In this document: positions 1,841 to 19,400 of the stretch, piece by piece
How positions within the stretch are numbered: the stretch's first letter is position 1
Layout: every line of letters begins with the position of its first letter
DNA from: a virus
Strand: one strand, 5' to 3'
IMG/VR virus record: IMGVR_UViG_3300023184_000034
Location: 64,001 to 128,000 of that record
DNA: 64,000 nt
Position numbers and translations under genes: made by a program
The notes under the pieces: model-generated
Databases searched by the model: none
Seen by the model: only the letters and a program-made list of their open reading frames with translations
What the model was told of the DNA's origin: nothing

Positions 1841-3750
1841 TGAGCTATAACATTACACTCACCAATGGCACAACGTTAACCAAAGTTAACGATGGTACTA
1901 TAAATCAAACAGTTACAGACCTCACACTTATAGGTAAAAATTCCACAGGGTACGGTGGATTTTTTAATGATAACTTTGTGAGGTTGTTGGAAAATTTCTC
2001 CAATTCAAGCCAACCCAATTATCCGTTGACTGGTCAATTGTGGTACGATACCAGTGAAAACAGACTTAAAATTTATAACGGATCTGCATTCACTACCACA
2101 AGTGGAACAATTGTTTCATCCACAGTACCAAGCAATATTGGAGTAGGTGATATTTGGATTGACAATGTGTTGGGTCAAATGCATTTTAATGACGGACTCA
2201 ACACTGTGCTTGCTGGCCCAATTTACAATTCTAATCAGGGAATTACAGGGTTCAATGTGGAAGATGTTATTGATACTGCAGGCAGAACTCAAACTGTACT
2301 GGTTTTGTATGTGGCAAGAACTATCCTTGGTATTTTTAGCAAAACTACTTTTACACCGGCCTTGCCTATACCAGGATTCACAAACATATCTCAGTTTACA
2401 GGAAGTCAATTTGGCAATGTGCTGACAGTTACCAGCATTGCTGTTGGTTCTTTAACAGTGGGACAAGTGGTTGCAGCAAATGGCATAGCAACTGGCACAC
2501 TAATTACTGGTCAACTGTCAGGAATAACCGGCGGCACCGGAACTTATTCGTTGAGTTTGTCTGGTGTAGTGTTAACCACAACAATGACAGCGTCTTCCAA
2601 TGTGGTTAGAATAGGATTTAATACTGGAACTTTTCCCGGTGTTGTGTTTGATGCAATTGCCTCCAGAACACAATCTTTGATAGCTGCAGACGGCAGTTTA
2701 AAAACAGCTGATGATTTTATTTCTGCCAGTGAGGATTCAACCAGCAACGGACAATTGAGTATTAGAAATAATATCCCACTGATTCTAGGTGCTGGTTCTA
2801 ATGTACAGCTTAAAATAGACACCAACAGCAACACGTTCCAAATGAATTCCAACACTGCTAATTTGAACTTTGGAATTAATTTACAAACAAACGGAGCATT
2901 GCAACCCAGTTTGTTTATTGCAGGATCGTCTCAATTTGTTGGTTTGGGCACTCAAATACCCACAGCCAAATTGGATGTCAACGGCGACACTGTTATTCGT
3001 GGAAACTTAACAGTTCAAGGCACAACACAGACCATTAGCAGTACCACTGTGACCATTGCTGATAAGAATATAGAGTTGGGCAAGGTCACCAATCCCACCA
3101 ACACCACTGCAGAAAGCGGTGGAATTACATTAAAGGGTACCACTGACAAGACCGTGGTGTGGTCCGTGACTGCCACATCAACTGGGTCCAACACAGGTTA
3201 TTGGAATTTTTCAGATTTTGTCAACATCAGTAGCAGCGGCGCAAATGTGGGGTATTATATTAATGGAAACAGTGTGTTAAGCGCAACCACACTGGGTTCT
3301 GGAATCACAGGAGCACCTGGCTTAACCAGTGTTGGCGCACTGACTTCACTGCAAGCTGCATACATCAATATCAACGGAAGTACTATTTCCTATGTACACT
3401 CTGCCACAAACGGCAATATTACACTTACTCCAAAAGGTTCCGGATATGTGAGTGTCAGTTCTGCATTAATTTCCAACGTGGGAACACCAGTTAGTGGAAC
3501 AGATGCTGCTAACAAGACTTATGTAGATAACCAAATTAAATCATCTCCATTGGGATTATACATTGATTTTACCGCACTGGGCATCTCGCTGGGATCAGCA
3601 AATGCTTCAATAATTAACCTTTTAACTAAAGTCTATCCTCCAGCCATCACCACAAGTACCACAACTTGCCGTGTGTTGTGTAGTGACGGCACAGTTAGGG
3701 AATTCACGTCCAGCGGAACAGCATGGTTATACACCCAAGTAATAACTTAA
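1840..3750 (+). CDS. Tail fibre/baseplate structural protein (paralogue)
   Basis: N-terminal TDLTLIGKN..GYG..NF..LLENF..GQLWYD module shared with the next gene; DAANKTYVD fibre motif; Thr/Gly/Ser-rich. Confidence 0.7.
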   Translation: MSYNITLTNGTTLTKVNDGTINQTVTDLTLIGKNSTGYGGFFNDNFVRLLENFSNSSQPNYPLTGQLWYDTSENRLKIYNGSAFTTTSGTIVSSTVPSNIGVGDIWIDNVLGQMHFNDGLNTVLAGPIYNSNQGITGFNVEDVIDTAGRTQTVLVLYVARTILGIFSKTTFTPALPIPGFTNISQFTGSQFGNVLTVTSIAVGSLTVGQVVAANGIATGTLITGQLSGITGGTGTYSLSLSGVVLTTTMTASSNVVRIGFNTGTFPGVVFDAIASRTQSLIAADGSLKTADDFISASEDSTSNGQLSIRNNIPLILGAGSNVQLKIDTNSNTFQMNSNTANLNFGINLQTNGALQPSLFIAGSSQFVGLGTQIPTAKLDVNGDTVIRGNLTVQGTTQTISSTTVTIADKNIELGKVTNPTNTTAESGGITLKGTTDKTVVWSVTATSTGSNTGYWNFSDFVNISSSGANVGYYINGNSVLSATTLGSGITGAPGLTSVGALTSLQAAYININGSTISYVHSATNGNITLTPKGSGYVSVSSALISNVGTPVSGTDAANKTYVDNQIKSSPLGLYIDFTALGISLGSANASIINLLTKVYPPAITTSTTTCRVLCSDGTVREFTSSGTAWLYTQVIT

Positions 3751-3784
3751 AACAGCATAAATACTAGAATAAGGAACGAGCGAG

Positions 3785-5281
3785 ATGGCATATACAATAA
3801 ACAGATATAATGGTACCGTATTAACTACAGTCGCAGACGGTACTGTTGATACCACAACTGACCTTACCTTTATTGGTAAGAATTATGCCGGATACGGTGA
3901 AAAACAAAACGAAAATTTCTTGTACTTATTAGAAAATTTTGCAAGTACATCAGCGCCGCCCACACCGTTAAAGGGACAGTTGTGGTTTGACAGCGGCACA
4001 AGCAAGTTAAAATTCTACGACGGATCTAAATTCAGAGCAACTGGCGGCGCAGAAACTGGCCCAACACAGCCAAGTGGATTTGCTGCCACTGGAGATTTTT
4101 GGTGGGACACTGTTAATCAACAACTGTATGCATGGTCTGGCACAGCATATCAATTGATTGGACCACAGGCTGTGACTGGTTTGGGCATTACCCAGATGCA
4201 ATCTATCAGCGTTAAGGATTTGGAAAATGGTGCGTCTCATGCTGTTGTTCAAGCTGCAATAAACGGCAAGGTGGCTTTTATTATCAGTTCAGACACTGCC
4301 TTTACATTGGATCCCACACTTAATGCCATCACAGGATTTGACAAAATACAACAAGGTGTCACATTAGCCTTCACAAAAAATGCCGACGCAGGCGTAACAA
4401 ACAGCAGTTCTAATTATAGATTTCACGGCACCGCAACCAATGCTGATAAATTGGGCGGCCAGGTTGCAAGTAACTATTTGTTGGCATCCAATTCCGCGTT
4501 CAGTCAAATTGTAAATTTTGCAGATGTGGGTTACAGCGTTGGCAACCCAACTGCAAAACTAAGAGTGTTTAATGATTCCACAAACAGTTTTTTCCCGACC
4601 ATTCTAAATCAATTCAATGACACAATTATATTTAAAACAACTGTGTCATCTGTTGCAAAAACTCCTTTGAAGTTAACAGGAACTGATGTTCTTCCAGGCA
4701 CAACATTGACCAACAACTTGGGAAGCTCGTCTTTGGTTTGGAACAGCGTGTATGCTTCAAACTTTGTGGGAACAGCAACCAATTCCAACTACTTGAACCT
4801 GGGCGGCTCTTACGTGTCAGCCACCACTGCTAGCACAGCCACTACTATTGTTGCTAGAGACGCCAATCGAGACATATTTGCCAACGTTTTTAACGGCACA
4901 TCAACCAGTGCCAACTATGCTGACTTGGCAGAAAAATATTTGGCAGACAAAGCATATGATCCTGGCACTGTGGTCTGTATTGGCGGAGCAGCAGAAGTAA
5001 CTGCTGCAACATCTGGCTCAATGGCAATTGGAGTTGTGAGTGCTAATCCAGCATACATGATGAACAGTGCGCTGGCGGGCGGCACCTATATTGCTTTAAA
5101 AGGCCGTGTGCCTGTGAAAATTATTGGCCCAGTACGCAAAGGCGATGCACTGGTGCCAGCAGGTGCGGGATCAGCCAAAACCGACGATTCAACAGTGCCA
5201 GGCCAGCATAGACAATTTGGTATTGCGTTGGAAGATAATGTGGAACCCGGTGTCAAACTTGTAGAGTGTGTGATACTTTAA
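3785..5281 (+). CDS. Tail fibre/baseplate structural protein with C-terminal YADLAE..GRVPVK chaperone-like domain
   Basis: Same N-terminal module as 1840..3750; C-terminal YADLAEKY..PGTVV..GVVS..ALKGRVPVK; upstream ATAAATA and AAGGA. Confidence 0.7.
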   Translation: MAYTINRYNGTVLTTVADGTVDTTTDLTFIGKNYAGYGEKQNENFLYLLENFASTSAPPTPLKGQLWFDSGTSKLKFYDGSKFRATGGAETGPTQPSGFAATGDFWWDTVNQQLYAWSGTAYQLIGPQAVTGLGITQMQSISVKDLENGASHAVVQAAINGKVAFIISSDTAFTLDPTLNAITGFDKIQQGVTLAFTKNADAGVTNSSSNYRFHGTATNADKLGGQVASNYLLASNSAFSQIVNFADVGYSVGNPTAKLRVFNDSTNSFFPTILNQFNDTIIFKTTVSSVAKTPLKLTGTDVLPGTTLTNNLGSSSLVWNSVYASNFVGTATNSNYLNLGGSYVSATTASTATTIVARDANRDIFANVFNGTSTSANYADLAEKYLADKAYDPGTVVCIGGAAEVTAATSGSMAIGVVSANPAYMMNSALAGGTYIALKGRVPVKIIGPVRKGDALVPAGAGSAKTDDSTVPGQHRQFGIALEDNVEPGVKLVECVIL

Positions 5282-5308: not shown

Positions 5309-8300
5309 ATGACTGCTGTTGGTACAAAAGTTTTTGCTTCAGAATACAATGCTATTCAAGCAGCCATTAGTACAGTGTTGGGAACAGGTGCCGGCGCATC
5401 GGGTTACGGACAAACTGTGCTTAGTTCACAAGTCAGCACCAGCTCCAGCATCACAGTTGCTCAGTGGGCAAATTTGAGAGCTGACTTGTTGAAAGCATAT
5501 TTGCATCAAGGCACACCAGGCGACTTACCACTGCCAAGTGTTCCTCAAAAGTCAACACTGCCATACACCATAGTTACATATTCTGATTACAATCGGTACT
5601 TGGATTTATCCAATGTTATCACAGCCAATGCAGGAGTTGCTCCTCCAGCTGGCCAAGCAACACTGCAAACATTTTCAACTGGATCTTATACATCGACTTG
5701 GAATGGCCAACTCACTCACTCAGTAGTACTGACATTTGCCACGGCTAATCAAGCAAGATTTTATTTCAACTCCGGCGGCAATATTCAATTCAGCGCCAGT
5801 TTGATCAACTATCCAGGATATCCAGGTTACGGCTCTCAAAGCGCCAGCTATGCAAAAAACAGCGATTGGAACATGTTGTTGAACAACATGGGCACAACCA
5901 CTTTTGGTAGAAACAGCACTGTGAACAGCGGCAACGGCACAGGACAAACAATTTTATCTGCTGTGGGATATTTTCAATTGACCACGGGCGAGCAAAATAT
6001 TTACCGCAAGACCACAAGCAGTGCATCCTACACACCTAACCAGTATGATTTGTATGCCAACGTGGATGCAACTGGTGCGGTTATAACATTCAATATCAGA
6101 TTTAAAGACCTATCCACAACAAGTGGCACTGGGTTTGGTGCAACTGACGAAAACGTGGAAGGTTCCTTGACCAGTTTGATACAGGGGTATTATGCGTCAG
6201 GCAGTTATGTTGCTGCAACACCGCCAGCAACCACAGCAGTATTTGCAGGCGGTGCTGTGGTGGCACCTCCTCCTCCTCCTCCTCCTCCTCCAATTTATGA
6301 ACCACCACCACCACCGGTAGTAGTTTACAACGAAGTTTTACTACCAACATCACCAATACGAGTTCAAACTAGTACTTCATTTGTTATATCAGCAAGTGGT
6401 GGTGTTCCTGGTACTTCTTATACTGTAAATGAAACTGGATCTGGTGCATATTCTAGTAATGGTGTATTAAACGGTGCCGGCGGCGCTACTATTAATATTT
6501 CAGCTAGTACTTTAACATCTGCAGGTACATACTCGTTTAATTTTGTTTTTAGTGGCAGCGGCAATTCTCGATCTGTTGCAGTAATCGCAGCAAACGCAAT
6601 ACCAAATCCAAGTTACGGACCATTTACAGTTAATCCAACTGTAGCTACTAACGGACAAACAATAACAGTAAGTGCAACAGTTTATAATTGTACTACAGCG
6701 GACTACTGGAACATACTTGTTCCTGACTCTGTTGGTACATATGCGGTTGCTACAGGCGCTGTAGCTAACTATGTAGCAGGTACACAAACATTTACTAGAA
6801 CATTTACATTCCAACAGGCAAATGCACCATATACAACGTTTTTCTCTATTGCTGGTAGCTGGGGAAGTTTAACTGCACAACAAGGCCCAACGGTAACATT
6901 GTATGTTGCACCACCTCCACCACCTCCACCGAGTTACGGTGCATATGGATGGAGTCCCGCGGGCCCAGTAAATGCAGGAACAAGCATAACATTCAGTGCC
7001 GTGGCCAACAATGCAATTGGAGACGTTTATGGAATTGGAACTACCAGTAACGGAACACCAACAGCAGTTAGTGGAGTGATTTCTACAAATCCGCAGACAA
7101 TTTCACGTACAATCACAGCGGTGTACAATGCAACTTACAGCCACAGTGGAAACTTTATATTGAACTCTCTCTCTCCATCTACAGTCCAATCGACGTTAAC
7201 TGTTAATGCTCCAGCCGCACCACCACCACCCACACCCACATACACAGTGTCGCCAGGTTCGCTGACAGTGAATGAAGGCGGCACAATATCCGTATCGATC
7301 ACCACAACCAATGTGTCCAATGGAACTTATCTGTATTGGCAATTGGCTCCCACAATCTCAGGCCTAACACCCGTTGCAGGATCTGGTGATTTTAGTAGTG
7401 CAATGTCTGGCAGTGTTCAAATAAACAGCAACGCTGGCTCCATTAACCTTGGTGTGCTTGCTGATGCACTAACAGAAGACACAGAATTTATTTCAGTTAG
7501 AGTTTATTCAGATTCAGGACTCACAAATCAAGTGGGATATGTGTCAGTTAGCATCCAGGATACCAGCACAACTCCTCCACCAAATCCAAGTATCAGCTCA
7601 GTCACAGCCAGTCCAAATCCAGCCACTAACGGCCAAACAATAACTTTAAGTGTCACTGTGATTAATATGCGTGCTGAGCTGGGCAACGGCAACAACGGCT
7701 TCGGCGCTTTAAGCATTTCCGCGATATCTCCAGCAGCAGAGCAAGTCGGTGCATCTTATTATCTTCCCGCGCAGAACGGAACTGTGATAACTACCCACAC
7801 ATTCACATTCCTGGCGGCGCAGGCTCCTTACACAACCTCCGCCCATCTGGGTTCATTTTACCCACAATCTGTGACCGCAGGGCCAACCATCACTCTGTAT
7901 GTTCCACCTCCGCCACCATATGTACCACCACCGCCACCTTATGTGCCACCTTATGTGCCACCAGCGTTTCTCTACACTGTGACTTGGCCAGGACCCAGCT
8001 GGAATATTAACGTGCCTGCTGATGGCTCAGCCATCAGCACATCAGTATCAGTTTATTGCAGTTCTGGCAGCGGCACATATGAAGTTCAAGAAACAAGCAG
8101 ACCAGCTGCTGTGTCAGTGGCAGTGGATGGTGTGTCAGGTCCTGCCAGGATCTCACAGTATATATCAGCAGGTCAAACTAGATCACACACAGTAACAGTG
8201 TATGCAAATCCGCCTGGCGCAGGATACAACGGCAGCTTCTGGGCAGGCGGCGTTTCTTACCCTTGGACTGCAACCTTCAGAGGTAGTCCACGTGTTACGG

Positions 8301-8560
8301 CATATGTCTTTATTCCAACCCCAACCTATGTAGGCCAGTACGTGCTGTTTGCTGTTGATGTGGCTGATGCAGATGGCCTGACCTGGGGCGCAAATGTATA
8401 TACCAACAACTTCTACGCCATAGGCAGCGCGAGTGGCACTGTTAGTGGCAATCAGCTTCATGCCATCATAATTGGTGGATTCTATACCACTGCCGGCATG
8501 AATCTGGGAACATTTTATTTGGGCGGCGTTGGGGTTGTTCAGACACAAGTCAATCTTTAA
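5309..8560 (+). CDS. Large modular virion fibre/adhesin: beta-rich domains joined by poly-proline linkers
   Basis: N-terminal virion domain (ARFYFNSGG), then about 7 beta-rich modules separated by Pro runs; one module is Calx-beta-like (VNEGGT..DALTEDTE). Confidence 0.65.
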   Translation: MTAVGTKVFASEYNAIQAAISTVLGTGAGASGYGQTVLSSQVSTSSSITVAQWANLRADLLKAYLHQGTPGDLPLPSVPQKSTLPYTIVTYSDYNRYLDLSNVITANAGVAPPAGQATLQTFSTGSYTSTWNGQLTHSVVLTFATANQARFYFNSGGNIQFSASLINYPGYPGYGSQSASYAKNSDWNMLLNNMGTTTFGRNSTVNSGNGTGQTILSAVGYFQLTTGEQNIYRKTTSSASYTPNQYDLYANVDATGAVITFNIRFKDLSTTSGTGFGATDENVEGSLTSLIQGYYASGSYVAATPPATTAVFAGGAVVAPPPPPPPPPIYEPPPPPVVVYNEVLLPTSPIRVQTSTSFVISASGGVPGTSYTVNETGSGAYSSNGVLNGAGGATINISASTLTSAGTYSFNFVFSGSGNSRSVAVIAANAIPNPSYGPFTVNPTVATNGQTITVSATVYNCTTADYWNILVPDSVGTYAVATGAVANYVAGTQTFTRTFTFQQANAPYTTFFSIAGSWGSLTAQQGPTVTLYVAPPPPPPPSYGAYGWSPAGPVNAGTSITFSAVANNAIGDVYGIGTTSNGTPTAVSGVISTNPQTISRTITAVYNATYSHSGNFILNSLSPSTVQSTLTVNAPAAPPPPTPTYTVSPGSLTVNEGGTISVSITTTNVSNGTYLYWQLAPTISGLTPVAGSGDFSSAMSGSVQINSNAGSINLGVLADALTEDTEFISVRVYSDSGLTNQVGYVSVSIQDTSTTPPPNPSISSVTASPNPATNGQTITLSVTVINMRAELGNGNNGFGALSISAISPAAEQVGASYYLPAQNGTVITTHTFTFLAAQAPYTTSAHLGSFYPQSVTAGPTITLYVPPPPPYVPPPPPYVPPYVPPAFLYTVTWPGPSWNINVPADGSAISTSVSVYCSSGSGTYEVQETSRPAAVSVAVDGVSGPARISQYISAGQTRSHTVTVYANPPGAGYNGSFWAGGVSYPWTATFRGSPRVTAYVFIPTPTYVGQYVLFAVDVADADGLTWGANVYTNNFYAIGSASGTVSGNQLHAIIIGGFYTTAGMNLGTFYLGGVGVVQTQVNL
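6266..6315 (+). repeat. (CCT)n/(CCA)n trinucleotide tract encoding poly-Pro linker
   Basis: cctcctcctcctcctcctcctcctcca...ccaccaccaccaccg is visible directly. Confidence 0.9.
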
Positions 8561-9147
8561 TGACCTTTGATTTATTAAACGAAACACCCAAGGTAGTTTA
8601 TTATCATAATGCACTCACTGAAAAGGAGTGCGATTATGTTATTAAAAATGCTGATAATTTTGAAAAATCTTTGGGTTTTGATTTAGCGTCAAAACAACCA
8701 AAACCCACAGAATGGCGCACCAGCAGCAATCATTTTGACCATGCTGGCAAGTTCAAATACATCACGGAAAAAGCTGCAGAGCTTTCAAATCATCCAGTTG
8801 TTAATATTGAACCTCCGCAAATATTAAAATACCAAATTGATGAGTTTTATAAACCGCATCACGATTTTTTTAATTTTCCGCCTGACATAATTACCACACA
8901 CAATGACAGGGTTGGCACTGTTATTTTTTATTTGAACGATGCTTTTCTTGGCGGCGCAACTCGTTTTCCTTCATTAAACATCACTGTTCGTCCACGAAAG
9001 GGATCTGCATTGTTCTTTGAGTATAATTATTCTAAAGATATCAATTACTTAACAATGCACGGAGGAATGCCTGTGATTCAAGGCACCAAGTACATTGCTA
9101 CTTCTTGGATACGCGGCAATCAGTGGGGACACACCCATGGCTCTTAA
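8560..9147 (+). CDS. Prolyl 4-hydroxylase-like 2OG-Fe(II) dioxygenase
   Basis: RTSS, QILKY...YKPHHD, TVIFYLND, GGATRFP, PRKGSALFF, HGGMPV..GTKYIATSW (HxD..H plus Lys, P4H type). Confidence 0.8.
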   Translation: MTFDLLNETPKVVYYHNALTEKECDYVIKNADNFEKSLGFDLASKQPKPTEWRTSSNHFDHAGKFKYITEKAAELSNHPVVNIEPPQILKYQIDEFYKPHHDFFNFPPDIITTHNDRVGTVIFYLNDAFLGGATRFPSLNITVRPRKGSALFFEYNYSKDINYLTMHGGMPVIQGTKYIATSWIRGNQWGHTHGS

Positions 9148-9751
9148 CCACGTTGACACAGGTTATAAAACAATTTTTAGAATTGATAATGCATTAGATA
9201 CAGAAATTTGTGATCAACTTTGTAATTTTATGATCACACATAAATTAAAATCAAATCCAACTGATAATTTATTACCATGGTTTGATGGCGAGACATGCAT
9301 TCCGTGGGAATTAGATAATATCAATTTGAAAAAACAAATTGTTGCCTATAGAAAATTAGTTACAGAAATAGTGTCTGAAAAATTTAATCAAACGCTATAT
9401 CCAGAATTTACTCATCTTGTACTGTGGCGCACTGGCAGACAAATGCCCCGCCACAAAGATGATGGGTATAATGAGAATGATCCACTTGCAACAAGAAAAG
9501 TCAGTTGTGTAACTTATCTAAATGATGATTTTACAGGTGGCCAAACGTTTGTGTCTAATGAAACTGGCATTGATTATATCAGTAGACCCATTAAGGGATC
9601 TCTTGTTTGTTATCTAAGTGATAGTACAAACCAGCACGGTGTAAATCCAATATTGTCAGGCAATCGTGTTACTATGCCAATTTGGTTTTGTAGTGATATA
9701 ACCAAATCTGAAGATGTTAAGCTGAGTAATATTATTCAGTCACTTTTATAA
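9137..9751 (+). CDS. 2OG-Fe(II) oxygenase
   Basis: HKD, YLNDDFTGG, HGVNPILSGNRVT..W; start taken at MALNHV. Confidence 0.8.
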   Translation: MALNHVDTGYKTIFRIDNALDTEICDQLCNFMITHKLKSNPTDNLLPWFDGETCIPWELDNINLKKQIVAYRKLVTEIVSEKFNQTLYPEFTHLVLWRTGRQMPRHKDDGYNENDPLATRKVSCVTYLNDDFTGGQTFVSNETGIDYISRPIKGSLVCYLSDSTNQHGVNPILSGNRVTMPIWFCSDITKSEDVKLSNIIQSLL

Positions 9752-9769
9752 AATAATCATCCTCGGCTC

Positions 9770-9798
9770 TTGACAAGATAATTAAAGTAGTGTATTAT
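9770..9798 (+). promoter_or_regulatory. Sigma70-type promoter for the glycosyltransferase operon
   Basis: TTGACA-17 bp-TATTAT, followed by GGAG and the ATG at 9818. Confidence 0.75.
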
Positions 9799-9817
9799 AA
9801 GCATTACGGAGTTATCT

Positions 9818-10165
9818 ATGGATGAAAGAATTGAAAAAGCATTTGCTGTGGCCAATTACATGAGCACATTGGCGGGCCAAAAACGTATTATTTTGGAAGA
9901 GTACAATCAGCAGCTGATACATTATACAAATGGTGCAACCTTCAAAGTCTCGCGAGAACTGATTGTGTTTGTACACACACTCACTGAGCTTGGCAGCACA
10001 GATGCTGTTGTTTTAGACGATAACAATTTTCCTGCACTAATTGACAATCTTCAGGAATTCTTAGAAAAAATTTCCAACGTGTATAATGAAGCCACTAAGG
10101 AGTATGCTGACAAGTACAATGATATTAGAGTAAAACGAAAAATTTCTGATATTGTTGAACTATGA
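9818..10165 (+). CDS. Hypothetical protein
   Basis: 115-aa ORF with RBS; ATGA overlap with the next gene. Confidence 0.7.
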   Translation: MDERIEKAFAVANYMSTLAGQKRIILEEYNQQLIHYTNGATFKVSRELIVFVHTLTELGSTDAVVLDDNNFPALIDNLQEFLEKISNVYNEATKEYADKYNDIRVKRKISDIVEL

Positions 10166-11010
10166 GTCGAGGCATTGTGATATTTGCGCAGAATAATCCA
10201 CAAGTTGATTATATAAAACTGGCTGTGTTTGCAGCCAAACAAGCGCAAAAACATTTGGATTTACCTGTGAGTTTGATTACAGACAGCAGATCTTGGCTGG
10301 AACAAAATTACCCAGACCATCCATTTGACCATGTAATAGACGTTGACTTTAACGAAGTTTCTCAGCATAGAGTTTTTTACGATGGTGCCTTGGCCAGTAA
10401 AAAAGTTGACTGGCGAAATCACACAAGAAGTAAAATATACGATCTCACACCATACTATACCACACTGGTAATTGACAGTGATTACATTATCAACAGTGAT
10501 ATTTTAAAACAGGCATTTGGTAGAGATGCTGATTTGCAAATTTATTCCAACAGTATGGATTTAGCTGCCTGGCGAAATACAGAAGAATTTGCACGTATCA
10601 ATCCGTACAGTGTTAAATTTTACTGGGCTACTGCGTTTGTGTTTCAAAAAAATACAGTTACAGAATCATTTTTTTATCTAGTTAATTATATAAAATCTAA
10701 TTGGAAATATTTTAGAATGTTGTACAATATTGACACAACATTGTTTAGGAATGATTATGCTTTTAGTATTGCAATACACTTGATGAATAACAAAACACAA
10801 GGATCTTTCTCTGTAGAATTGCCAGGCACCATGATATATGTCAAAGATCGAGATATACTGGTCGGCACAAATCGTAACAAAATGAAATTCCTGTTAGAAA
10901 AAGAAAATCACCCAGGCGAATACACGCTGGCCAAAACAACAGGACTTGATGTGCATGTTATGAACAAAATAAGTCTTGCTCGTTACATAGATGGGGGTTC
11001 AGGTGTCTAA
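10162..11010 (+). CDS. GT-A fold (GT8-like) nucleotide-sugar transferase
   Basis: GIVIFAQN, VSLITD, TLVIDSD (DxD), RNDYAFSIA; paralogue of the next gene. Confidence 0.65.
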   Translation: MSRGIVIFAQNNPQVDYIKLAVFAAKQAQKHLDLPVSLITDSRSWLEQNYPDHPFDHVIDVDFNEVSQHRVFYDGALASKKVDWRNHTRSKIYDLTPYYTTLVIDSDYIINSDILKQAFGRDADLQIYSNSMDLAAWRNTEEFARINPYSVKFYWATAFVFQKNTVTESFFYLVNYIKSNWKYFRMLYNIDTTLFRNDYAFSIAIHLMNNKTQGSFSVELPGTMIYVKDRDILVGTNRNKMKFLLEKENHPGEYTLAKTTGLDVHVMNKISLARYIDGGSGV

Positions 11011-11845
11011 AGGATTTTTGGTTTTTGCACAGAATACTGCAGATGTTGACTATGTTCAGCAAGCATATGCATTGGCATTGAGTATCAAATTAACACAAAA
11101 AGAAGTCATTGACATTTCGCTAGTGACTGACAGTCCCGTACCTAAGAAATATCTAAGTGCGTTTGATCAAGTACTCTCCATACCGTTTGGCGATCAAAGT
11201 AACAATTCTAAATTTAGAACAGAAAATCGTTGGAAACTTTATCATGCAAGTCCTTACGATGAAACAATAGTGTTGGACTCAGACATGCTGGTATTAGAAG
11301 ATATTGCCACGTGGTGGAAATACTGTGGTAATTACGATATTAGATTTTGTAACAGCATAACAAATTATAAATTACAACAGGTAACAGATAACGTACACAG
11401 AAAAACATTTGCGTCCAACAATCTTACCAACCCATATTTTGCATTACATTACTTTAAAAAATCTCATAGGTCGTTGGAATTTTTTAAAGTGCTGGAGTTT
11501 GTAATCAATAACTGGGAATGGTTCTGGACCAAATTTGCACCTGAAAATTACCAAGATTGGTTAAGCATGGACTTGGCTGTGGCCATTGCCATTGAAGTGA
11601 TGTGTGCTCAAGAAGAATTTTTAGACACCAATTGCCCGTTGATATTTGTGCATATGAAAACACCCTTGCAAGGATGGAACATCAGCAACACTAGTTGGCA
11701 AGATTCTGTTCTTTACAATTTTAACGGTGACTTAACAGTGGGTAATATACAACAACAAAAAATATTTCATTATGTAGAAAATGATTTTTTATCTGACAAA
11801 ATTATCAATCGATTGGAGGAACTGACCAGTGGCCAAGCGAAGTAA
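10991..11845 (+). CDS. GT-A fold (GT8-like) nucleotide-sugar transferase
   Basis: GFLVFAQN, SPYDETIVLDSD (DxD), FVHMK, FHYVE; true start may be the GTG near 11003. Confidence 0.7.
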   Translation: MGVQVSKGFLVFAQNTADVDYVQQAYALALSIKLTQKEVIDISLVTDSPVPKKYLSAFDQVLSIPFGDQSNNSKFRTENRWKLYHASPYDETIVLDSDMLVLEDIATWWKYCGNYDIRFCNSITNYKLQQVTDNVHRKTFASNNLTNPYFALHYFKKSHRSLEFFKVLEFVINNWEWFWTKFAPENYQDWLSMDLAVAIAIEVMCAQEEFLDTNCPLIFVHMKTPLQGWNISNTSWQDSVLYNFNGDLTVGNIQQQKIFHYVENDFLSDKIINRLEELTSGQAK

Positions 11846-12455
11846 AAAAATCAAACCCTTGGTAGACATTGTAGTTGAAAGTAAATATTATGTGTACTAT
11901 GACAACAGTGACAACAAACTAATCAGTGTGAGTAATCAGTTGCAGCCTCAATTTGAACATTCATTAGACATAACATTTAATGAGTATAGTAAACTGGTAA
12001 CAGGAGTGCATAAGTTTGCTGATTATCATGTGGGTGTTGTTATAGACGCTGAAGGAAATCCTATAAAGGGATTGGTGTCTAATCAAGTAATTATCGAAAA
12101 TACCTTTAAAAACAGATTGCTGGCATGGATTGATACTGAAACTGATTCAGCAGATATTGAGATACATTGGGATCAATACAATAGTCAATGGGTGTTCGTG
12201 GCATCTGATGATTTGAGACAGCAATACTACGACAACAAGTTACCCGATACCAGCGTGTCTTTTTTTGTAACACTGGGACAAGATCCAAATTTCTTGTTGA
12301 GAACAATTGATATAGATTTTAAAACCATCACCTTGGACAAAATCTCTGTTAAATTTGAATCAAAATACGAAGAACGTATACAAGATATTGCTGTTACCGC
12401 CAACTTGGCAACCTTGGACTATTCATTAAAATTATGGAGTACTATAATTGAGTAA
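11829..12455 (+). CDS. Hypothetical protein in GT operon
   Basis: 208-aa ORF with GGAGG RBS and GTG start. Confidence 0.65.
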   Translation: MAKRSKKIKPLVDIVVESKYYVYYDNSDNKLISVSNQLQPQFEHSLDITFNEYSKLVTGVHKFADYHVGVVIDAEGNPIKGLVSNQVIIENTFKNRLLAWIDTETDSADIEIHWDQYNSQWVFVASDDLRQQYYDNKLPDTSVSFFVTLGQDPNFLLRTIDIDFKTITLDKISVKFESKYEERIQDIAVTANLATLDYSLKLWSTIIE

Positions 12456-13347
12456 AATAATAAAAGTCATAGAACAAGACATCATATTTTTAAGTTATGA
12501 TGAACCCAACGCTGAAAAAAATTACGCAGACTTGCTGGCCAAAGTACCATGGGCAAAGCGTGTACACGGAGTCAAAGGGTCGGATGCCGCACACAAAGCC
12601 TGTGCTGCCAAATGTGAAACTGAATACTTTGTCACAGTGGATGGTGATAACATTGTTGACCCAGCATTTTTAGAAGTTGAAATTGACCTTGAAGCTATCA
12701 ACGTAACCAAAAATCATGTGTTCAGTTGGTGCGGCCATGTTCACGTGAACGGTCTACGTTATGGCAATGGCGGACTCAAAATGTGGACACCCAAATTTGT
12801 CAACGCTATGAAAACACACGAAAATTCGGATGATGATGACACCAAAGGCCTAGTTGAATTTTGTTTCGATGACCGGTACTATCAGTTCAACGACAACTAC
12901 AGTAACAGCTACACCAATGCCAGTGCTTTCCAAGCCTGGCGTGCTGGGTTTCGAGAAGGTGTAAAGATGAGTTTAGATCAAGGTGCCAAAGTAACAGACC
13001 TTAAAACAATATGGTGGCAAAATTATCACCGATTATTAATTTGGTGCAACATTGGTGCTGATGTAGAAAACGGATTGTGGAGTATGTACGGTGCTAGACA
13101 AGGTGCGTACTTGACTAATTGTACTGATTGGGATTACACTAATGTACGAGATTTTGATTGGCTCACAACAGAGTGGGAAGAAACATACAGCAAGATCACT
13201 GACAAAATGTTGCCCTATGAAATAATGGGTTTAGGTGAAACACTCAAACATGAATGCGGATTAGAAATTACTGATGTTGATGCAACTGGCAGTAAGTTTT
13301 TTAAAACTGTGTTTAACAACAGCCCAAGAATTATTAGGAAAAGATAA
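12448..13347 (+). CDS. Glycosyltransferase-like protein (GT-A)
   Basis: IFLSYDEP, HGVKGSDAAHK, VTVDGDN (DxD), AWRAGFREGVK; paralogue of the next gene. Confidence 0.6.
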   Translation: MSKIIKVIEQDIIFLSYDEPNAEKNYADLLAKVPWAKRVHGVKGSDAAHKACAAKCETEYFVTVDGDNIVDPAFLEVEIDLEAINVTKNHVFSWCGHVHVNGLRYGNGGLKMWTPKFVNAMKTHENSDDDDTKGLVEFCFDDRYYQFNDNYSNSYTNASAFQAWRAGFREGVKMSLDQGAKVTDLKTIWWQNYHRLLIWCNIGADVENGLWSMYGARQGAYLTNCTDWDYTNVRDFDWLTTEWEETYSKITDKMLPYEIMGLGETLKHECGLEITDVDATGSKFFKTVFNNSPRIIRKR

Positions 13348-14063
13348 TGTACGATATTGTGTTTATTACATACAAAGAAGAAATATCTTCAAGTTACTAT
13401 ATTGAAGAATTTGTAAAGAAATTTCCTTATCACAGAACACATTGGGTTCGAGGTGTTAAAGGTATCCATAATGCCCACAAAGAAGCTGCAGGTAGAGTAT
13501 TTTCTAAAATGTTCTATGTGGTTGATGCTGATGCTAAACTGTTACCAAGTTTTAAGTTTGATACAAAACTAGATCCCAGCGAAGAGGATATTGTGCATGT
13601 GTGGAGAGCTATCAATCCTGTGAATGGATTAGAATATGGTTTTGGTGGAGTCAAATTACTGCCAACAGAACTGACTCGTGTCATGTCAATTGACAGCGTT
13701 GACATGACTACCAGCATCAGCCCACGATTTAAAATAATGCCAGAAATCAACAATGTCACAGCATTCAACACTGATCCACTCAGCACATGGCGCAGTGCAT
13801 TCAGAGAATGTGTCAAGTTGGCCAGCAGAATAATTCCAGGACAAGATAATTCACAATCAGAACACCGACTACATACATGGATACACTTCGGCGGTAATGA
13901 ACCGTTTGGCGAATATTCAAAGGGTGGTGCGAGTGCGGGACAATGGTATGGAACCACCTATAAAGATGATCCCGAAGCACTGGCCAAAATCAATGATTAT
14001 GATTGGTTGGAACATCAGTTCAATGCACACATTGAACAGTTTCCGCCGGAGACTTTTAAATAA
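13347..14063 (+). CDS. Glycosyltransferase-like protein (GT-A)
   Basis: YDIVFITY, GVKGIHNAHK, YVVDAD (DxD), TWRSAFRECVKL. Confidence 0.6.
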   Translation: MYDIVFITYKEEISSSYYIEEFVKKFPYHRTHWVRGVKGIHNAHKEAAGRVFSKMFYVVDADAKLLPSFKFDTKLDPSEEDIVHVWRAINPVNGLEYGFGGVKLLPTELTRVMSIDSVDMTTSISPRFKIMPEINNVTAFNTDPLSTWRSAFRECVKLASRIIPGQDNSQSEHRLHTWIHFGGNEPFGEYSKGGASAGQWYGTTYKDDPEALAKINDYDWLEHQFNAHIEQFPPETFK

Positions 14064-14718
14064 GATCTTTGGTTAGGGGAAAGATCTCTGCAATAACTTG
14101 GGCACAGGCTCGTGCTACTTCTTGATGCTCTTTTTGTGTGCCGTTAGCACTGCGCAATTCAATAAAGTGAATCCAGCTGCGCAGTGTACCATTCATGTAA
14201 ATTCTACTTTCTGTAAGGCCTTCTGGCAACACAGCTCGTGCTTGTTCTTTTGCTATGCCATTAGCGATAGCCCACTCGTATTCCCGTTTGGCAGCATAGA
14301 TGACTCGCTGTTGAGCTCTGTACCATTCGTTTTGTAACATTGTATCATCCACTTGGACGCTGTTCTGGCGGTTTTTTGGATCTTGAAGTCTTGCTTCTCT
14401 TGTAACAAAGTTGAGATCTTTAGTTGGGTCAGCATATCGTTGACTGAACTCTTGGAAGCTGAAACTACGATGTCTAAGGATCTGTCTAGCAATATCTCTA
14501 GTGGTTGTGATTTCGATACAGGCTGACACCATTTCGAGTGGGCTCCAGTGTTGGTGCTTGACCAAGTATCGGATGAGCTTGTCTGATGTTTCAGTGTTAA
14601 GTTGGTTGCTGGGATTGGACACACGGGCGCAATACGCAATGAGTTCCTGCGCATCTGTGATTCCAAGATTTGCAAATTCTGCGGTTGGTTGTGAATAGGA
14701 TAAAAGCTGAACATTCAT
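14056..14718 (-). CDS. thyX: Flavin-dependent thymidylate synthase
   Basis: HWSPLE, RQILRHRSFSFQEFSQRY (RHRx7S), AKEQARAVLP, LRSWIHF. Confidence 0.95.
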   Translation of the reverse strand: MNVQLLSYSQPTAEFANLGITDAQELIAYCARVSNPSNQLNTETSDKLIRYLVKHQHWSPLEMVSACIEITTTRDIARQILRHRSFSFQEFSQRYADPTKDLNFVTREARLQDPKNRQNSVQVDDTMLQNEWYRAQQRVIYAAKREYEWAIANGIAKEQARAVLPEGLTESRIYMNGTLRSWIHFIELRSANGTQKEHQEVARACAQVIAEIFPLTKDLI

Positions 14719-14721
14719 TAT

Positions 14722-15042
14722 TTATAATTTCTTCTTTTTTAAAAATTTCTGAGTACTACGTTCTATGTCTTTTTTTACACGTTCAGTATCTAATTTAAAA
14801 TCAATGTTATCTATGGTGTCTTCGTAGGTTTTGCACAATTCACTAAGGTTCTGTTCAAAGACACTCCATCCTTCACGTTTTGCTTTAGCAGTTACTTTGA
14901 TTTCCCAAGTCTTACCATCTTTAAAATTAACCAAAACGGTATGTAGATACCTAACAGGTAACACGTTTAATTCAACGTCTCCGAATACTTCTGGCCAATG
15001 CTCTATGACATCCTTGGGAAGAATTTTCCCAGATTTGGTCAC
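14722..15042 (-). CDS. Hypothetical protein
   Basis: 106-aa ORF collinear with its neighbours. Confidence 0.65.
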   Translation of the reverse strand: MTKSGKILPKDVIEHWPEVFGDVELNVLPVRYLHTVLVNFKDGKTWEIKVTAKAKREGWSVFEQNLSELCKTYEDTIDNIDFKLDTERVKKDIERSTQKFLKKKKL

Positions 15043-15635
15043 TTTACAGGTTTTTTGGTCGGGACCAAGTCCTCGGCAAGACGTCTAAACTGTGCAGCTT
15101 CTTTTGCCAACTTATCTGCTTTGCTACGATATTCTTTGGCTTGTTCTTCAGGAGTAGATGCAACTGATGCCACGGGCATAATTGTTTTAACAGCTTCAAC
15201 AGTGGCTGTGGCTTTTTCAACTTTGGCTTTTTCGTTTGGCCCGTTTGGCTTCAAAGACAACTCGTCCACAGCAATACCACGTTGCTCTGCAATAATTTGA
15301 TTAAGTTCGGACAACTGAATACTGACACCTATAGTTGGAGTCATTTCGATAGCATTGGTTGGTGCCTTGATTAACCGACCACTTCCGTGTAATGCCGGCA
15401 ACATGCGACTACCGTCTGGGAATTGTGTACGATCCAGTGCTTCAGCAAACTCGTAAGACTCTTGTCCTGCACTACTCTCTACCAAATTAATAATAGCATC
15501 GTGGTAAATATCAGGCAAGTTTTCTGTAGGAACAATTAGACAACTATGTGCATCACCGGGCAAGGTGCGATATGCCACAATACATTTTTTGTTTGTGGCA
15601 ACAACACGACCTATGTGTTTTAGTTCTTTGGCCAT
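15039..15635 (-). CDS. Hypothetical protein
   Basis: 198-aa ORF with GGAG RBS. Confidence 0.7.
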   Translation of the reverse strand: MAKELKHIGRVVATNKKCIVAYRTLPGDAHSCLIVPTENLPDIYHDAIINLVESSAGQESYEFAEALDRTQFPDGSRMLPALHGSGRLIKAPTNAIEMTPTIGVSIQLSELNQIIAEQRGIAVDELSLKPNGPNEKAKVEKATATVEAVKTIMPVASVASTPEEQAKEYRSKADKLAKEAAQFRRLAEDLVPTKKPVK

Positions 15636-15639
15636 AATA

Positions 15640-15900
15640 TTATGCTCCTACCACAGCGTTTGCTACGGATTGTGTGTTAGTTTGCGGCGCAGGTTGTTGT
15701 GCTTGCTGTGCTGAAACTGTGTCTAAAAATGTTGTTAGCTTGGTATATGTTTGACCCACGGCTACCATTTCGTTTGGTTTGAATGCACCCCGCGAACTAG
15801 CAATATCGATAATAACCTTCATGGCATTCAAGTCATTGATGGTAAGATCGTTATTTTGTGCAGCATCAGCTGCTGGTTGTTGATTTTGTACATCAGCCAT
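15640..15900 (-). CDS. Small phage hypothetical protein
   Basis: LTINDL..IIDIASSRGAFK..E..VG.TY; start MADVQ follows a GGAG RBS. Confidence 0.7.
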   Translation of the reverse strand: MADVQNQQPAADAAQNNDLTINDLNAMKVIIDIASSRGAFKPNEMVAVGQTYTKLTTFLDTVSAQQAQQPAPQTNTQSVANAVVGA

Positions 15901-15933
15901 TAGAATCTCCTTATTGTGAAAGTACACAATTAA

Positions 15934-16221
15934 TTATCTCGCCTGCAAAAGTGGACAGGCAATTGTGAAAAAACTTAATTCTTTTTCACTTTCAAAGCCA
16001 ATGCGTGTATTATACACAATTGTGTTGGAATTATCTAATGTAATACCTTGCCCTATATAATACCTATTATTTAAATTTTTACGAATCCACAAATCTAATG
16101 ATTTAACCAGCATTGGATTGTATTTGTCTAAAGAAGTGTATTTGAAGTGAGGACAGGCAAACTCAACCCTGCGTAGATTAAAGTAATCTAAAGGATTGGG
16201 CTTGCCATTCTTCAATGCCAT
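15934..16221 (-). CDS. Hypothetical protein
   Basis: 95-aa ORF with TAATG coupling to the upstream gene. Confidence 0.65.
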   Translation of the reverse strand: MALKNGKPNPLDYFNLRRVEFACPHFKYTSLDKYNPMLVKSLDLWIRKNLNNRYYIGQGITLDNSNTIVYNTRIGFESEKELSFFTIACPLLQAR

Positions 16222-17405
16222 TACGCTGATTCCGCTTCAAGCTCGTAATAAGCGTACTCGCCAAATGGAGGAACAATAGTGTTATTACCGTGGATGATGA
16301 ATACTGTATCACAGTAGTTTTCATCACCCCAGCTGCCCCAAGGGTAGCCGTCTGTGAACATGATGAACTTTTTAGGTTGAATATCATTAGCTTTCATGTA
16401 TTCCCAATTGGCATCAAACTCAGTACCACCGCCACCTATTGGTTGGTAGCTATCAAACTCATCAATATTGTAACCGTCAAAGTCTGCTTCATTATATACT
16501 CTGGTGTCAAAACACCAAACTTTAATTTTAAAGTCTTTGTATTCTTCCATGATGCCTTTGATCTCTGACAAGAAATCTTTAGCTTGTTCGTCACCAATGG
16601 AACCCGACATGTCAATACCAACACAAATATCAATTGTTTCTTGAAATTGTGTACCAGGAAGTATAGCACTCATGTGCCAACCCTTGCGATTAGGACGCAT
16701 AAACGAATAGTCATTCTTGATAGTGCTTTGGATTTGCTGACGCAAAATTTCACGCCAGTTCATTTTAGGCTCTGTAAGATCTTTAATCATGCGTTGTACA
16801 TTTGCGGGAGTATTTCCCGCACCCGCTGCCTGAGCAGCTTGTATGGTGGCCTCACGTATCTCGTCACGAATTTGTTTCAATTCTTCTTTGCTGTAGCGAG
16901 GTTGACCATCTTTGCCTGGCTCACCCCAGTCAATATGTTCGTCCAGCAATTGACCAAGTGCATCTAATTCTTTTTCATCCATTTCATCATAAATCTGATC
17001 ATACACTTCTTCTGCACCCATGCCGTAGTACTTTTGATCATGGAAGATTTTAATATCCGGAATATTATGATCACCAATACGATCACGCACCAATTGTCCA
17101 TTTACACAATAGTCAGCTGCAATGTTAAAGATTTTAGCATTGCGACTTTCTCGACGACCCATGTGGTCAAATACATTGTGTAAAATTTCATGAGCAATAA
17201 CAAACTCAACTTGCTTTACAGTTAGTTTTTCAAAAAACCCACGATTAAAATAAATATGGCGACCATCAGTGGCTGCTGTGGTCAACCAATCTTCACCTTC
17301 TTGGATTTTCAATCGGGTAGCCATGTTGCCAAAGAATGGATGTTTGAGCAACAAGCTCACTCGTGCAATAATAATTTTATCAATAATTGGATCTGTATGT
17401 GACAT
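16221..17405 (-). CDS. Metallopeptidase + VWA domain protein (DUF2201-like), MoxR partner
   Basis: TAATDG, AHEILH (HExxH), DMSGS MIDAS motif, GGGTEF, FTDGY; start MSHTDP. Confidence 0.85.
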   Translation of the reverse strand: MSHTDPIIDKIIIARVSLLLKHPFFGNMATRLKIQEGEDWLTTAATDGRHIYFNRGFFEKLTVKQVEFVIAHEILHNVFDHMGRRESRNAKIFNIAADYCVNGQLVRDRIGDHNIPDIKIFHDQKYYGMGAEEVYDQIYDEMDEKELDALGQLLDEHIDWGEPGKDGQPRYSKEELKQIRDEIREATIQAAQAAGAGNTPANVQRMIKDLTEPKMNWREILRQQIQSTIKNDYSFMRPNRKGWHMSAILPGTQFQETIDICVGIDMSGSIGDEQAKDFLSEIKGIMEEYKDFKIKVWCFDTRVYNEADFDGYNIDEFDSYQPIGGGGTEFDANWEYMKANDIQPKKFIMFTDGYPWGSWGDENYCDTVFIIHGNNTIVPPFGEYAYYELEAESA

Positions 17406-17434
17406 GTTTGTTCCTAAGTTCTTACTATGTATAT

Positions 17435-17463
17435 AGTATAACACCACCCGAAGGTGGTGTCAA
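17435..17463 (-). promoter_or_regulatory. Sigma70-type promoter whose spacer is a UUCG hairpin
   Basis: Minus strand TTGACA-ccaccttcgggtggtgt(17)-TATACT; hairpin ACACCACC-TTCG-GGTGGTGT. Confidence 0.75.
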
Positions 17464-17479
17464 ACAGTATTAAACCAAT

Positions 17480-18580
17480 TTATTTAGAATCTTTGTCAGT
17501 TGCGGCGCTAATGTACTTGCCAAACTTAGCGTGGAAGTTGTCAAAACATTTAATCTCATCTGGATCTAACGGCAATTTGTATGTGCTCAATGCCAATTTA
17601 GTACCCATAATAACCAATTCTGTTTCAAAGTTGTTCATCATAAATTCGAAGAAATTATTAACTTGCTCGTTCCAATTCTTAGCTTTCTTATCGCAAGAAT
17701 CTTTCAACTCGTAGCACAGGGACACAGTCAACGAGTACATTGCAGAAATTTCTTTAGATTTCATTTCTTTAACTTTGCCATTCAAAATGTCTGTAGGATT
17801 AGGCATTTTGCTGGCGTGTTTACGGTGCGCCATAAATTTAATAGCAAGGCCTTCACCAACGGAACCTGACACCAAATCAGTTAATGTTTCGTTATCACAG
17901 TCGTCGTCGTGCAACAATTCGCTAACAAAGGACCAGCTGCGTGGTGTAGCAAAGGCACGGCTACTGGATTTTGGATCAAAGTCGTACAAGTCCTTTTTGG
18001 AGAAACTCAAGAAGCCAACCACATCCTTGTGAACTTTGTTTTCAGCAGCCCACTCAAAATAGTCATCCCAATTAACTAACATTTCCAAGTGAACAAAACG
18101 ATTAGCCAACGGCGCTGGCATACGGAATGTAACACCTTTGTCAGTTTCTCGGTTGCCTGCTGCAACAATTACAACATTGTCGGGCAAAGTGTATGCACCA
18201 ACTTTACGATTAAGCACCAATTGATATGCAGCTGCTTGAACGCTGGGTGCTGCACTGTTCATTTCATCCAGGAACAAGATAATGTGTTTGTGCTTTTTAG
18301 CCATTTCTTGGCTGGGCAGTTCGCTGGGCGGAGCCCACACCATTGTGTTGGAGTTTGAATCAAAATACGGAATACCTTTAATATCAGTAGGCTCCCACAG
18401 ACTCAAACGTACATCAATCACGTGAGCTTCAATCTCAACGCCAAGTTGTTTGATAATGTCAGACTTACCAATGCCGGGAGGACCCCATAGAAAGATTGGA
18501 CGCTTGTTTTTAAAAGCCTTACGGAGAGACTTTTTGGCGCCGCTTGGGCCCACTGTACGGCCTGAAATATCTGTTGCCAT
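17480..18580 (-). CDS. MoxR-like AAA+ ATPase
   Basis: GPPGIGKS Walker A, LFLDE Walker B, AAGN, PLANRF; start MATDISG lies downstream of the promoter. Confidence 0.9.
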   Translation of the reverse strand: MATDISGRTVGPSGAKKSLRKAFKNKRPIFLWGPPGIGKSDIIKQLGVEIEAHVIDVRLSLWEPTDIKGIPYFDSNSNTMVWAPPSELPSQEMAKKHKHIILFLDEMNSAAPSVQAAAYQLVLNRKVGAYTLPDNVVIVAAGNRETDKGVTFRMPAPLANRFVHLEMLVNWDDYFEWAAENKVHKDVVGFLSFSKKDLYDFDPKSSSRAFATPRSWSFVSELLHDDDCDNETLTDLVSGSVGEGLAIKFMAHRKHASKMPNPTDILNGKVKEMKSKEISAMYSLTVSLCYELKDSCDKKAKNWNEQVNNFFEFMMNNFETELVIMGTKLALSTYKLPLDPDEIKCFDNFHAKFGKYISAATDKDSK

Positions 18581-18635
18581 TTTATTTCCTATCTTAGTTA
18601 AAAAAATTGTTACGAATAACGTTGTGTATGTATGT

Positions 18636-18664
18636 ATTATAGCGTCGATACACAATCACGTCAA
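18636..18664 (-). promoter_or_regulatory. Sigma70-type promoter
   Basis: TTGACG-17 bp-TATAAT on the minus strand. Confidence 0.7.
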
Positions 18665-18680
18665 CAAGTTTTTTAAGTAT

Positions 18681-19363: not shown

Positions 19364-19400
19364 ATGCGTATCCTGGTAATGTACGCATATATTTATGCTA

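Follow-up and report, generated by a model that had tools for sequence, protein, structure and literature searches.

A prolyl 4-hydroxylase gene overlapping the gene of a fibre-like protein with polyproline linkers, next to a conserved glycosyltransferase operon, in an uncultured jumbo phage

The IMG/VR virus record IMGVR_UViG_3300023184_000034 is a contig of 161 kb with an estimated completeness of 44%, which implies a jumbo phage genome of approximately 350 kb. Bases 64001–128000 of this contig, a stretch of 64,000 nucleotides referred to here as the window, were analysed with focus on window positions 5309–14063. This region contains, all on the + strand, the gene of a modular fibre-like protein (P0001), a prolyl 4-hydroxylase (P4H) homologue (P0002), a second 2-oxoglutarate (2OG)-Fe(II) oxygenase (P0003) and a six-gene operon with two pairs of predicted glycosyltransferases (GTs) (P0004–P0009). 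A preliminary description of the region had proposed that these genes together form a hydroxyproline-glycoprotein system. The window derives from an uncultured jumbo myovirus of freshwater type, a relative of Ralstonia phage RsoM2USA (a 344-kb Ralstonia myovirus; PMC8504454), which was the only cultured relative obtained by tblastn, and megablast of the region against cultured phages gave no match. Relatives of the window genes were found on contigs of up to 387 kb. For comparison, 80 viral loci obtained through the P0005 family were pooled with loci obtained through the P4H. The P0004–P0009 block was present in 68 dereplicated loci, and 58 loci, from RsoM2USA-like jumbo phages, could be scored for P4H and proline runs.

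P0001 (5309..8560; 1083 aa) consists of an N-terminal domain (N-domain, aa 1–310) followed by modules of the size of Ig-like domains, which are carried on polyproline linkers (Pn below denotes n consecutive prolines). Linker 1 (6266..6316) is made up of P9 (aa 320–328), the tripeptide IYE and P5 (aa 332–336), linker 2 (6911..6931; aa 535–541) of P7 followed by SYG (APPPPPPPSYG), linker 3 (7220..7231; aa 638–641) of P4 within AAPPPPTPTY, and linker 4 (7898..7963; aa 864–885) of two P5 runs in YVPPPPPYVPPPPPYVPPYVPP. The peptide YVPPPPPYVPPPPP is also of the linker type, and a P3 run was found at aa 756–758. The pattern Pn-[ST]-Y-G of linker 2 was also detected in the relatives L019 and L008. 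The proline content of P0001 is 8.6%, at which 3e-7 P9 runs would be expected by chance, and P0001 was the only open reading frame (ORF) with a run of P4 or longer in the 161-kb contig. At least two of the modules, residues 377–531 and approximately 691–864, are paralogous and represent a repeat inside the protein; the proline runs are short spacers that separate folded modules. The codons of the P9 run, (CCT)8CCA (nt 6266–6292), form a pure trinucleotide repeat that could slip in length or serve as a recombination point between modules.

The N-domain of P0001 is homologous to stand-alone proteins of about 300 aa that are widespread in this phage group, including ORF355 of RsoM2USA. No Pfam, PHROG or PDB sequence match was obtained for P0001, either as the whole protein or as an N-domain profile, NCBIfam and PADLOC gave nothing meaningful, and the N-domain showed no similarity to the two upstream fibre proteins. 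A T4-type late promoter motif (TATAAATA) was not enriched and was absent upstream of the P0001 gene. P0001 is a putative fibre protein on account of its position and architecture: it is encoded by the last gene after three fibre genes, is modular and has a homologue in RsoM2USA that adjoins a confirmed virion protein. The N-domain (5309–6238) is rich in Ser, Thr and Gly and could itself be an acceptor for GTs.

The start codon of the P0002 gene (8560..9147; 195 aa) overlaps the stop codon of the P0001 gene in the sequence TAATG (TAA at 8558–8560, ATG at 8560–8562), which suggests that the two proteins are co-translated. The same zero-gap junction between a fibre gene and a P4H gene was found in L004, L005, L018 and L020. 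P0002 matched PF13640 with an E-value of 4e-15 (57 bits; cut-off 27), and full-length matches in PDB were obtained to the Bacillus anthracis P4H (BaP4H; 3itq/5iax; E 4e-33) and the Chlamydomonas P4H (E 1e-18), in addition to human C-P4H alpha-2 (E 4e-14) and the P4H of the giant chlorovirus PBCV-1 (E 3e-12). The residues H100, D102 and H167, corresponding to the HxD...H Fe ligands of the double-stranded beta-helix, are invariant in nine phage homologues and align with those of BaP4H. Lysine K177 is likewise invariant in the phage homologues and was aligned to the lysine in the BaP4H motif GEKWIATQW; we take it to be the lysine that binds the C5 carboxylate of 2OG, as in the P4H type, where the PHD and PKHD types have an arginine. 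By homology, P0002 is thus a genuine P4H homologue, predicted to be of the peptidyl-prolyl 4-hydroxylase type.

The P0003 gene (9137..9751) probably starts at ATG 9137, in which case it overlaps the P4H stop by 11 nt. P0003 matched PF13640 (E 7e-11) and gave weaker PDB matches to P3H1 (4e-5) and a PKHD hydroxylase (4e-3), whereas the match to NCBIfam PRK05467 was under the cut-off of that model. The HxD...H...R motifs lie at 106, 166 and 176, numbered from ATG 9137. P0003-like genes were confined to a part of the subclade with proline-run fibres. With respect to the preliminary description, the 1083-aa protein with P9, P5, P7 and P4 runs, the overlap at 8560, the P4H-motif dioxygenase and the second 2OG oxygenase behind it were all confirmed. 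Its characterization of P0001 as extensin-like did not hold: the Ser-Pro(3–5) or SPPPP motif of extensins is absent from P0001, none of the seven proline runs (0/7) is preceded by Ser, and the runs do not make up most of the protein.

Comparison with the related loci showed that the P4H gene occurs together with the proline runs. Of the 58 scorable loci, 47 have directly upstream of the operon a gene that encodes only a homologue of about 300 aa of P0001 aa 1–310; these loci contain neither a proline run nor an oxygenase, and a gap of 52–111 nt precedes P0004. A P4H was found exclusively where the upstream gene is long and bears runs of P5 or longer, namely in the window, L005, L008, L018, L020 and L150. 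In L004, where the contig ends within the fibre ORF, only a P4 run is visible. None of the four long upstream genes without proline runs (454–1042 aa) was accompanied by a P4H. Overall, run and P4H were found together in six loci, a run without P4H in one, a P4H without run in none and neither in 51 (Fisher 1.7e-7), and the corresponding counts for long genes only were 6/1/0/4 (p 0.015). In the tree of P0005 homologues the P4H state changed at least four times. One of these relatives, L150, represents an independent P4H case in a distant clade, where its sisters have long fibres free of proline runs and no P4H. In L093, the closest relative without P4H, a P0003-like 2OG oxygenase of 186 aa and an ORF of 266 aa (L093:569–1877) are located between the fibre gene and P0004. 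The slot is a hot spot at which oxygenase genes are exchanged.

The association was also found in other phage groups. Among 39 dereplicated phage P4H loci with an upstream ORF, the ORF directly upstream of the P4H contained a run of P5 or longer in five, compared to 1 of 570 other ORFs (p 5e-6), and when the three loci of the own clade were merged to one event the p-value was 8e-4. Independent neighbours of this kind outside the clade were found in the unrelated L014 (P12) and in the T4-like L089 (three P5 runs). In L089 and the related L010, small proline-rich proteins are encoded after the gene of the distal subunit of the long tail fibre and before the P4H. In L010 (IMGVR_UViG_3300033076_001272; L010:7097–10546), which is also T4-like, the distal-subunit gene is followed by two small Pro/Thr-rich ORFs, a GT that matched PF11397 (E 1e-35), a 266-aa ORF and the P4H. 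PF11397 corresponds to CAZy family GT60, to which the Skp1 hydroxyproline GlcNAc-transferase Gnt1 belongs (PMC6939170). Judged from its gene content, L010 is a better candidate for a phage hydroxyproline (Hyp)/Thr-O-GlcNAc glycoprotein system than the window itself, and since it combines a P4H, a polypeptide-GlcNAc-transferase and proline-rich proteins, the idea of a phage Hyp-glycoprotein is in general not far-fetched. A further phage with a P4H (261 kb, 95% complete) encodes, about 60 kb from the P4H, a fibre-like protein in which runs of P27 and P13 occur. This protein of 745 aa (L253:1961–4198, - strand; G001:C1:85000–93000) adjoins a paralogue with shorter runs and a glycine-rich repeat protein of 1192 aa.

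Downstream of the oxygenase genes, the operon starts with P0004 (9818..10165), a protein of 115 aa that was conserved in all relatives. It is followed by P0005 (10162..11010), P0006 (10991..11845), the 208-aa protein P0007 (11829..12455), also conserved in relatives, P0008 (12448..13347) and P0009 (13347..14063). P0004 and P0007 had not been mentioned in the preliminary description. P0005 and P0006 are paralogues with 26% identity (E 1e-15), as are P0008 and P0009 with 27% identity (E 5e-20). For P0004–P0009, no informative match was obtained in Pfam, PHROGs, NCBIfam or PADLOC, and PDB sequence searches with P0005 and P0008 gave nothing. The AF2 model of P0005 (pLDDT 89) showed a GT-A fold with GT8 topology. 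The model matched glycogenin with a Z-score of 15.5 (root-mean-square deviation 3.3 Å over 199 aa), UGGT, LARGE1 and GlyE with Z-scores of 14–15, and LgtC and Gat1 (6mw5) with a Z-score of 13.9. The motif D105-x-D107 was invariant in 35 sequences including the paralogue. An Atlas feature lead of 0.95 for P0005/P0006 pointed to clusters that partly carry PF01501, PF11051 or PF03407. The two proteins gave no Pfam hit to PF01501 at E ≤ 0.1 and are therefore classed as having a GT8-like fold and not as GT8 members. The assignment of this pair as DxD glycosyltransferases is well supported by the predicted structure and the invariant motif.

P0008 consists of an N-terminal domain similar to GT-A enzymes and NDP-sugar transferases and of a helical C-terminal domain. 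Its AF2 model had a pLDDT of 95, and the helical domain remained unmatched. Residues 1–160 matched B4GALNT1 (Z 9.7) and WrtF, SpsA, STIV A197, PBCV-1 A64R and SunS (Z 8–9), with nucleotidyltransferases at a similar level (Z about 8) and Foldseek E-values of about 1e-4; the viral structure matches were consistently GTs, including the GT of mycobacteriophage Che8. In 55 diverse homologues, D65 of the D65-x-D67 motif, at the end of the strand formed by residues 61–65, was nearly invariant and D67 invariant. Homologues of P0008 were found fused to the GT-B domains PF04101 and PF06722, and bacterial homologues adjoin GT4 and GT2 genes on chromosomes of Bdellovibrionales and Rhodobacterales. Assignment of P0008/P0009 as DxD glycosyltransferases is reasonably supported by these data. 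The P0008 family comprises more than 1200 clusters at 50% identity and has no Pfam model. Members fused behind a GT-B domain (GT28- or EryCIII-like) and members in tandem duplication were observed (P0311, P0314, P0325 and P0351; L218 and L210), and the neighbours of bacterial members also include caspase-domain and Sel1 proteins.

The operon is preceded by a sigma70-type promoter, TTGACAAGATAATTAAAGTAGTGTATTAT (9770..9798, + strand; TTGACA-17-TATTAT, 11/12 match), followed by GGAG and an ATG. This was the best promoter-like site of the region and was unique in the window. It was kept almost base for base, spacer included, in 56 of the 68 diverged loci. Conservation thus extends from the hexamers into the spacer (AAGATAAYTAnnGTAGTGTATTAT), which suggests that a regulator binds here or that this phage group has an extended promoter of its own. 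About 50 dereplicated relatives without P4H and without proline runs share the P0004–P0009 block and its promoter. The operon of two conserved proteins, two GT8-like and two GT-A-like proteins is thus a separate transcription unit conserved across the phage group, and its own conserved promoter and its presence in relatives without P4H and proline runs show that it does not depend on Hyp. GTs dependent on Hyp were rejected on the basis of this distribution, the conserved promoter and an hhalign comparison of the P0008 family with the GT60 protein of L010, which gave a probability of 0.2%. No match to PF11397 or any other Pfam GT model was obtained for P0005–P0009, nor any signature of GT60, GT95, GT77 or GT31, and their families were absent from the other P4H loci. 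The two paralogous DxD pairs, the own promoter of the operon and the weaker link of the GTs than of the P4H to the fibre had been recognised in the preliminary description, and the present comparison strengthened the second of these and bore out the other two. Of the hydroxyproline-glycoprotein system that it had proposed, the connection between the P4H and the proline-run protein was supported by homology, coupling and co-occurrence, whereas the inclusion of the four GTs was not supported.

Family membership, coupling and co-distribution together suggest that P0002 hydroxylates the polyproline linkers of P0001, a reading to which we assign a somewhat better than even chance. In this reading, the last gene of a late fibre operon encodes an N-domain of about 300 aa and beta-rich modules on rigid linkers in the polyproline II (PPII) conformation. 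In the subclade that evolved such linkers, a predicted accessory peptidyl-prolyl 4-hydroxylase is translationally coupled to the fibre gene, and some members also have a second 2OG oxygenase. The enzyme would act on linker prolines of the nascent or newly made protein in the host cytoplasm, with O2, Fe(II) and 2OG. Hydroxylation would stabilise the PPII conformation and may render the linkers more hydrophilic and soluble as well as more resistant to proteases; such effects are expected from established knowledge of 4-hydroxyproline. The GT operon is a separate module, the acceptor of which could be a virion protein, DNA or an envelope glycan.

Several observations weigh against hydroxylation of the linkers by P0002. 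The fibre identity of P0001 is itself deduced from position and architecture. The number of independent events is small: all three informative independent pairs agreed with the proline runs (3/3), with an underpowered sign test (p 0.25). The fibre protein of L096 contains P12 and P5 runs, but no P4H or other oxygenase was found in its contig of 42.8 kb, and in L093 the P4H is replaced by the 186-aa oxygenase and the 266-aa ORF. The co-occurrence of P4H with polyproline linkers that the preliminary description had named for study was observed within the clade and in two other groups, with L096 as an exception and few independent pairs. Besides, about 30 of 36 distant phage P4H lineages, mostly represented by genome fragments, have no proline-run ORF within 8 kb. 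To our knowledge, the physiological substrate of BaP4H, the closest solved homologue, is not established. The P4H of PBCV-1 is active on proline-rich peptides, yet Hyp was not detected in the virions (PMC7019647).

One alternative is that P0002 and P0003 are morons or auxiliary genes with a target other than the fibre, such as a host protein (a translation factor or a ribosomal protein), another phage protein or a small molecule, and that the end of the fibre operon is merely a permissive site. This is in line with the absence of a proline-run neighbour from most phage P4H homologues, with the annotation of the PHROG family as an auxiliary metabolic gene and with the clearly variable junction between fibre gene and GT operon seen in L093. 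Related bacterial enzymes hydroxylate EF-Tu (4iw3, a weak match of P0003), the role of viral P4Hs has been termed cryptic (PMC9301287), and 2OG oxygenases were detected in virion preparations of other viruses (PMC7019647, PMC12801897). However, this permissive site is empty in all 51 own-clade loci without proline runs, four of them with long fibres, and the recurrence of P4H genes next to proline-run ORFs in unrelated phages and the overlap that suggests co-translation also speak against it. We regard this alternative as rather unlikely. Still less probable is that the P4H forms Hyp in the linkers and that the adjacent operon O-glycosylates it, so that a phage glycoprotein of the extensin or Skp1 kind results. 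The P4H and GT genes are indeed adjacent, the GT8 fold family includes the protein-directed enzymes glycogenin, GlyE, UGGT and Gat1, P0008 weakly resembles polypeptide-directed GT-A enzymes and the virion GT of Che8, and L010, with its Pro/Thr-rich proteins, GT60 enzyme and P4H, makes such phage systems plausible (PMC6939170). Against this stand the occurrence of the operon with its own promoter in relatives lacking both P4H and proline runs, the lack of a Hyp-specific GT signature and of SPPPP motifs, and the absence of these GT families from other P4H loci. The broader proposition that tailed phages use Hyp chemistry in their host-recognition apparatus, with a viral P4H for fibre linkers and, here, GTs that glycosylate Hyp, appears equally improbable. 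Hyp chemistry has so far been established in eukaryotes, for enzymes of eukaryotic giant viruses in vitro and in few bacteria.

As for the GT operon alone, it might glycosylate phage DNA, or build or modify a host-envelope glycan derived from nucleotide sugars, and so belong functionally with the neighbouring genes for nucleotide metabolism and DNA modification rather than with the fibre; we consider this a tentative possibility. Sigma70-type promoters, such as the one found here, typically precede early or middle genes. ThyX adjoins the operon, QueE and GTP cyclohydrolase I are encoded some 8 kb away and indicate a 7-deazaguanine DNA-modification pathway, and bacterial P0008 homologues occur beside GT4 and GT2 genes. 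Both the promoter and the neighbouring nucleotide and DNA-modification genes would fit a target in DNA or in the envelope. DNA is the substrate of many phage GTs (Pyle et al. 2024, as cited in PMC12619734). On the other hand, a search of the 161-kb contig, an estimated 44% of the genome, for a dCMP/dUMP hydroxymethylase (PF00303) was negative, and the operon was always located directly downstream of the gene for the P0001 N-domain and next to tail genes, RsoM2USA included. By analogy with mycobacteriophages, this position would be compatible with glycosylation of a virion protein. We know of no GT8-type enzyme that acts on DNA.

Hydroxylation of viral proline-rich proteins by a viral P4H is not a new idea. 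PBCV-1 encodes, besides its P4H (A085R), proline-rich repeat proteins that have been proposed as substrates since the work on that enzyme (Eriksson et al. 1999, as cited in PMC9301287 and PMC7019647). A085R is a small viral P4H of the monomeric type and of the same family as P0002 (5c5t, the match with E 3e-12), but PBCV-1 is a eukaryotic giant virus in which enzyme and substrate are not genetically coupled. Even for this biochemically characterised enzyme, no substrate was found in the virion (PMC7019647). In the window, the P4H is coupled to a single protein with polyproline linkers, and its presence tracks the linkers across relatives. P4H homologues rank with the commonest auxiliary genes of aquatic viromes, where their role is described as cryptic (PMC9301287), and full-text literature searches revealed no publication that connects a phage P4H with the linkers of a fibre.

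Among cellular enzymes, BaP4H (3itq, 5iax, 5hv0), the closest solved homologue of P0002, shares the same Fe and 2OG ligands. It is a bacterial enzyme, and the peptides used to study it are collagen-like, of the (GPP)n kind. Their Gly-X-Y repeats set them apart from the phage linkers, which consist of homopolymeric proline runs. The hydroxyproline-rich glycoprotein (HRGP, extensin) pathway of plants and algae, in which P4H is followed by Hyp-O-arabinosyl and -galactosyl transferases, resembles the window in the P4H superfamily, to which the Chlamydomonas enzyme belongs, and in PPII segments with Tyr and Val. It differs in that the window has no Ser-Pro(3–5) arrays, its linkers are short spacers between domains and its GTs are neither Hyp-specific nor dependent on the P4H. 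Similarly, the Skp1 pathway (PhyA, Gnt1/GT60, ..., Gat1/GT8) combines a cytoplasmic P4H with soluble GTs, one of which, Gat1, matched P0005; however, no GT60 gene is present in the window, and the match to Gat1 was no better than those to other GT8 enzymes.

Glycosylation of mycobacteriophage virions likewise involves phage GT-A enzymes encoded next to structural genes; one of these enzymes, the Che8 GT, weakly matched P0008 in structure. In those systems, the glycans are reported on the C-termini of capsid and tail-tube proteins, with no hydroxylation (Freeman et al. 2023, as cited in PMC12619734); the operon in the window differs by its sigma70-type promoter. A corresponding arrangement is that of RsoM2USA ORF350–355 (MG752970; PMC8504454), the only cultured phage found with the block, which encodes the N-domain protein, a P0004-like protein, two GT8-like proteins, a P0007-like and a P0008-like protein. 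There, ORF355 (389 aa) abuts the P0004-like ORF354 without a P4H in between, and the genes of the block are annotated as hypothetical.

In the locus and its relatives, a P4H and a fibre-like protein with polyproline linkers form a concrete, genetically coupled candidate pair, and the natural presence and absence variants make the question directly testable. If the proposed reading were true, a phage adsorption organelle would be tuned after translation in an oxygen-dependent way, and P0002 would be a small, soluble P4H that acts on homopolymeric proline. In addition, the analysis defines a conserved six-gene GT operon with a conserved promoter in many uncultured jumbo phages and in RsoM2USA.

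Upstream of P0001, the window encodes three fibre-type proteins on the + strand (98–5281), namely a tail-collar protein (PF07484; 98–1840), a virion structural protein and, directly before P0001, a fibre with a C-terminus resembling an intramolecular chaperone (3785–5281). Downstream of the operon, the - strand from 14056 to 23889 encodes ThyX and further a DUF2201/VWA metallopeptidase-like protein with a MoxR-type AAA ATPase, a 5'-3' exonuclease and, farther on, QueE and GTP cyclohydrolase I.

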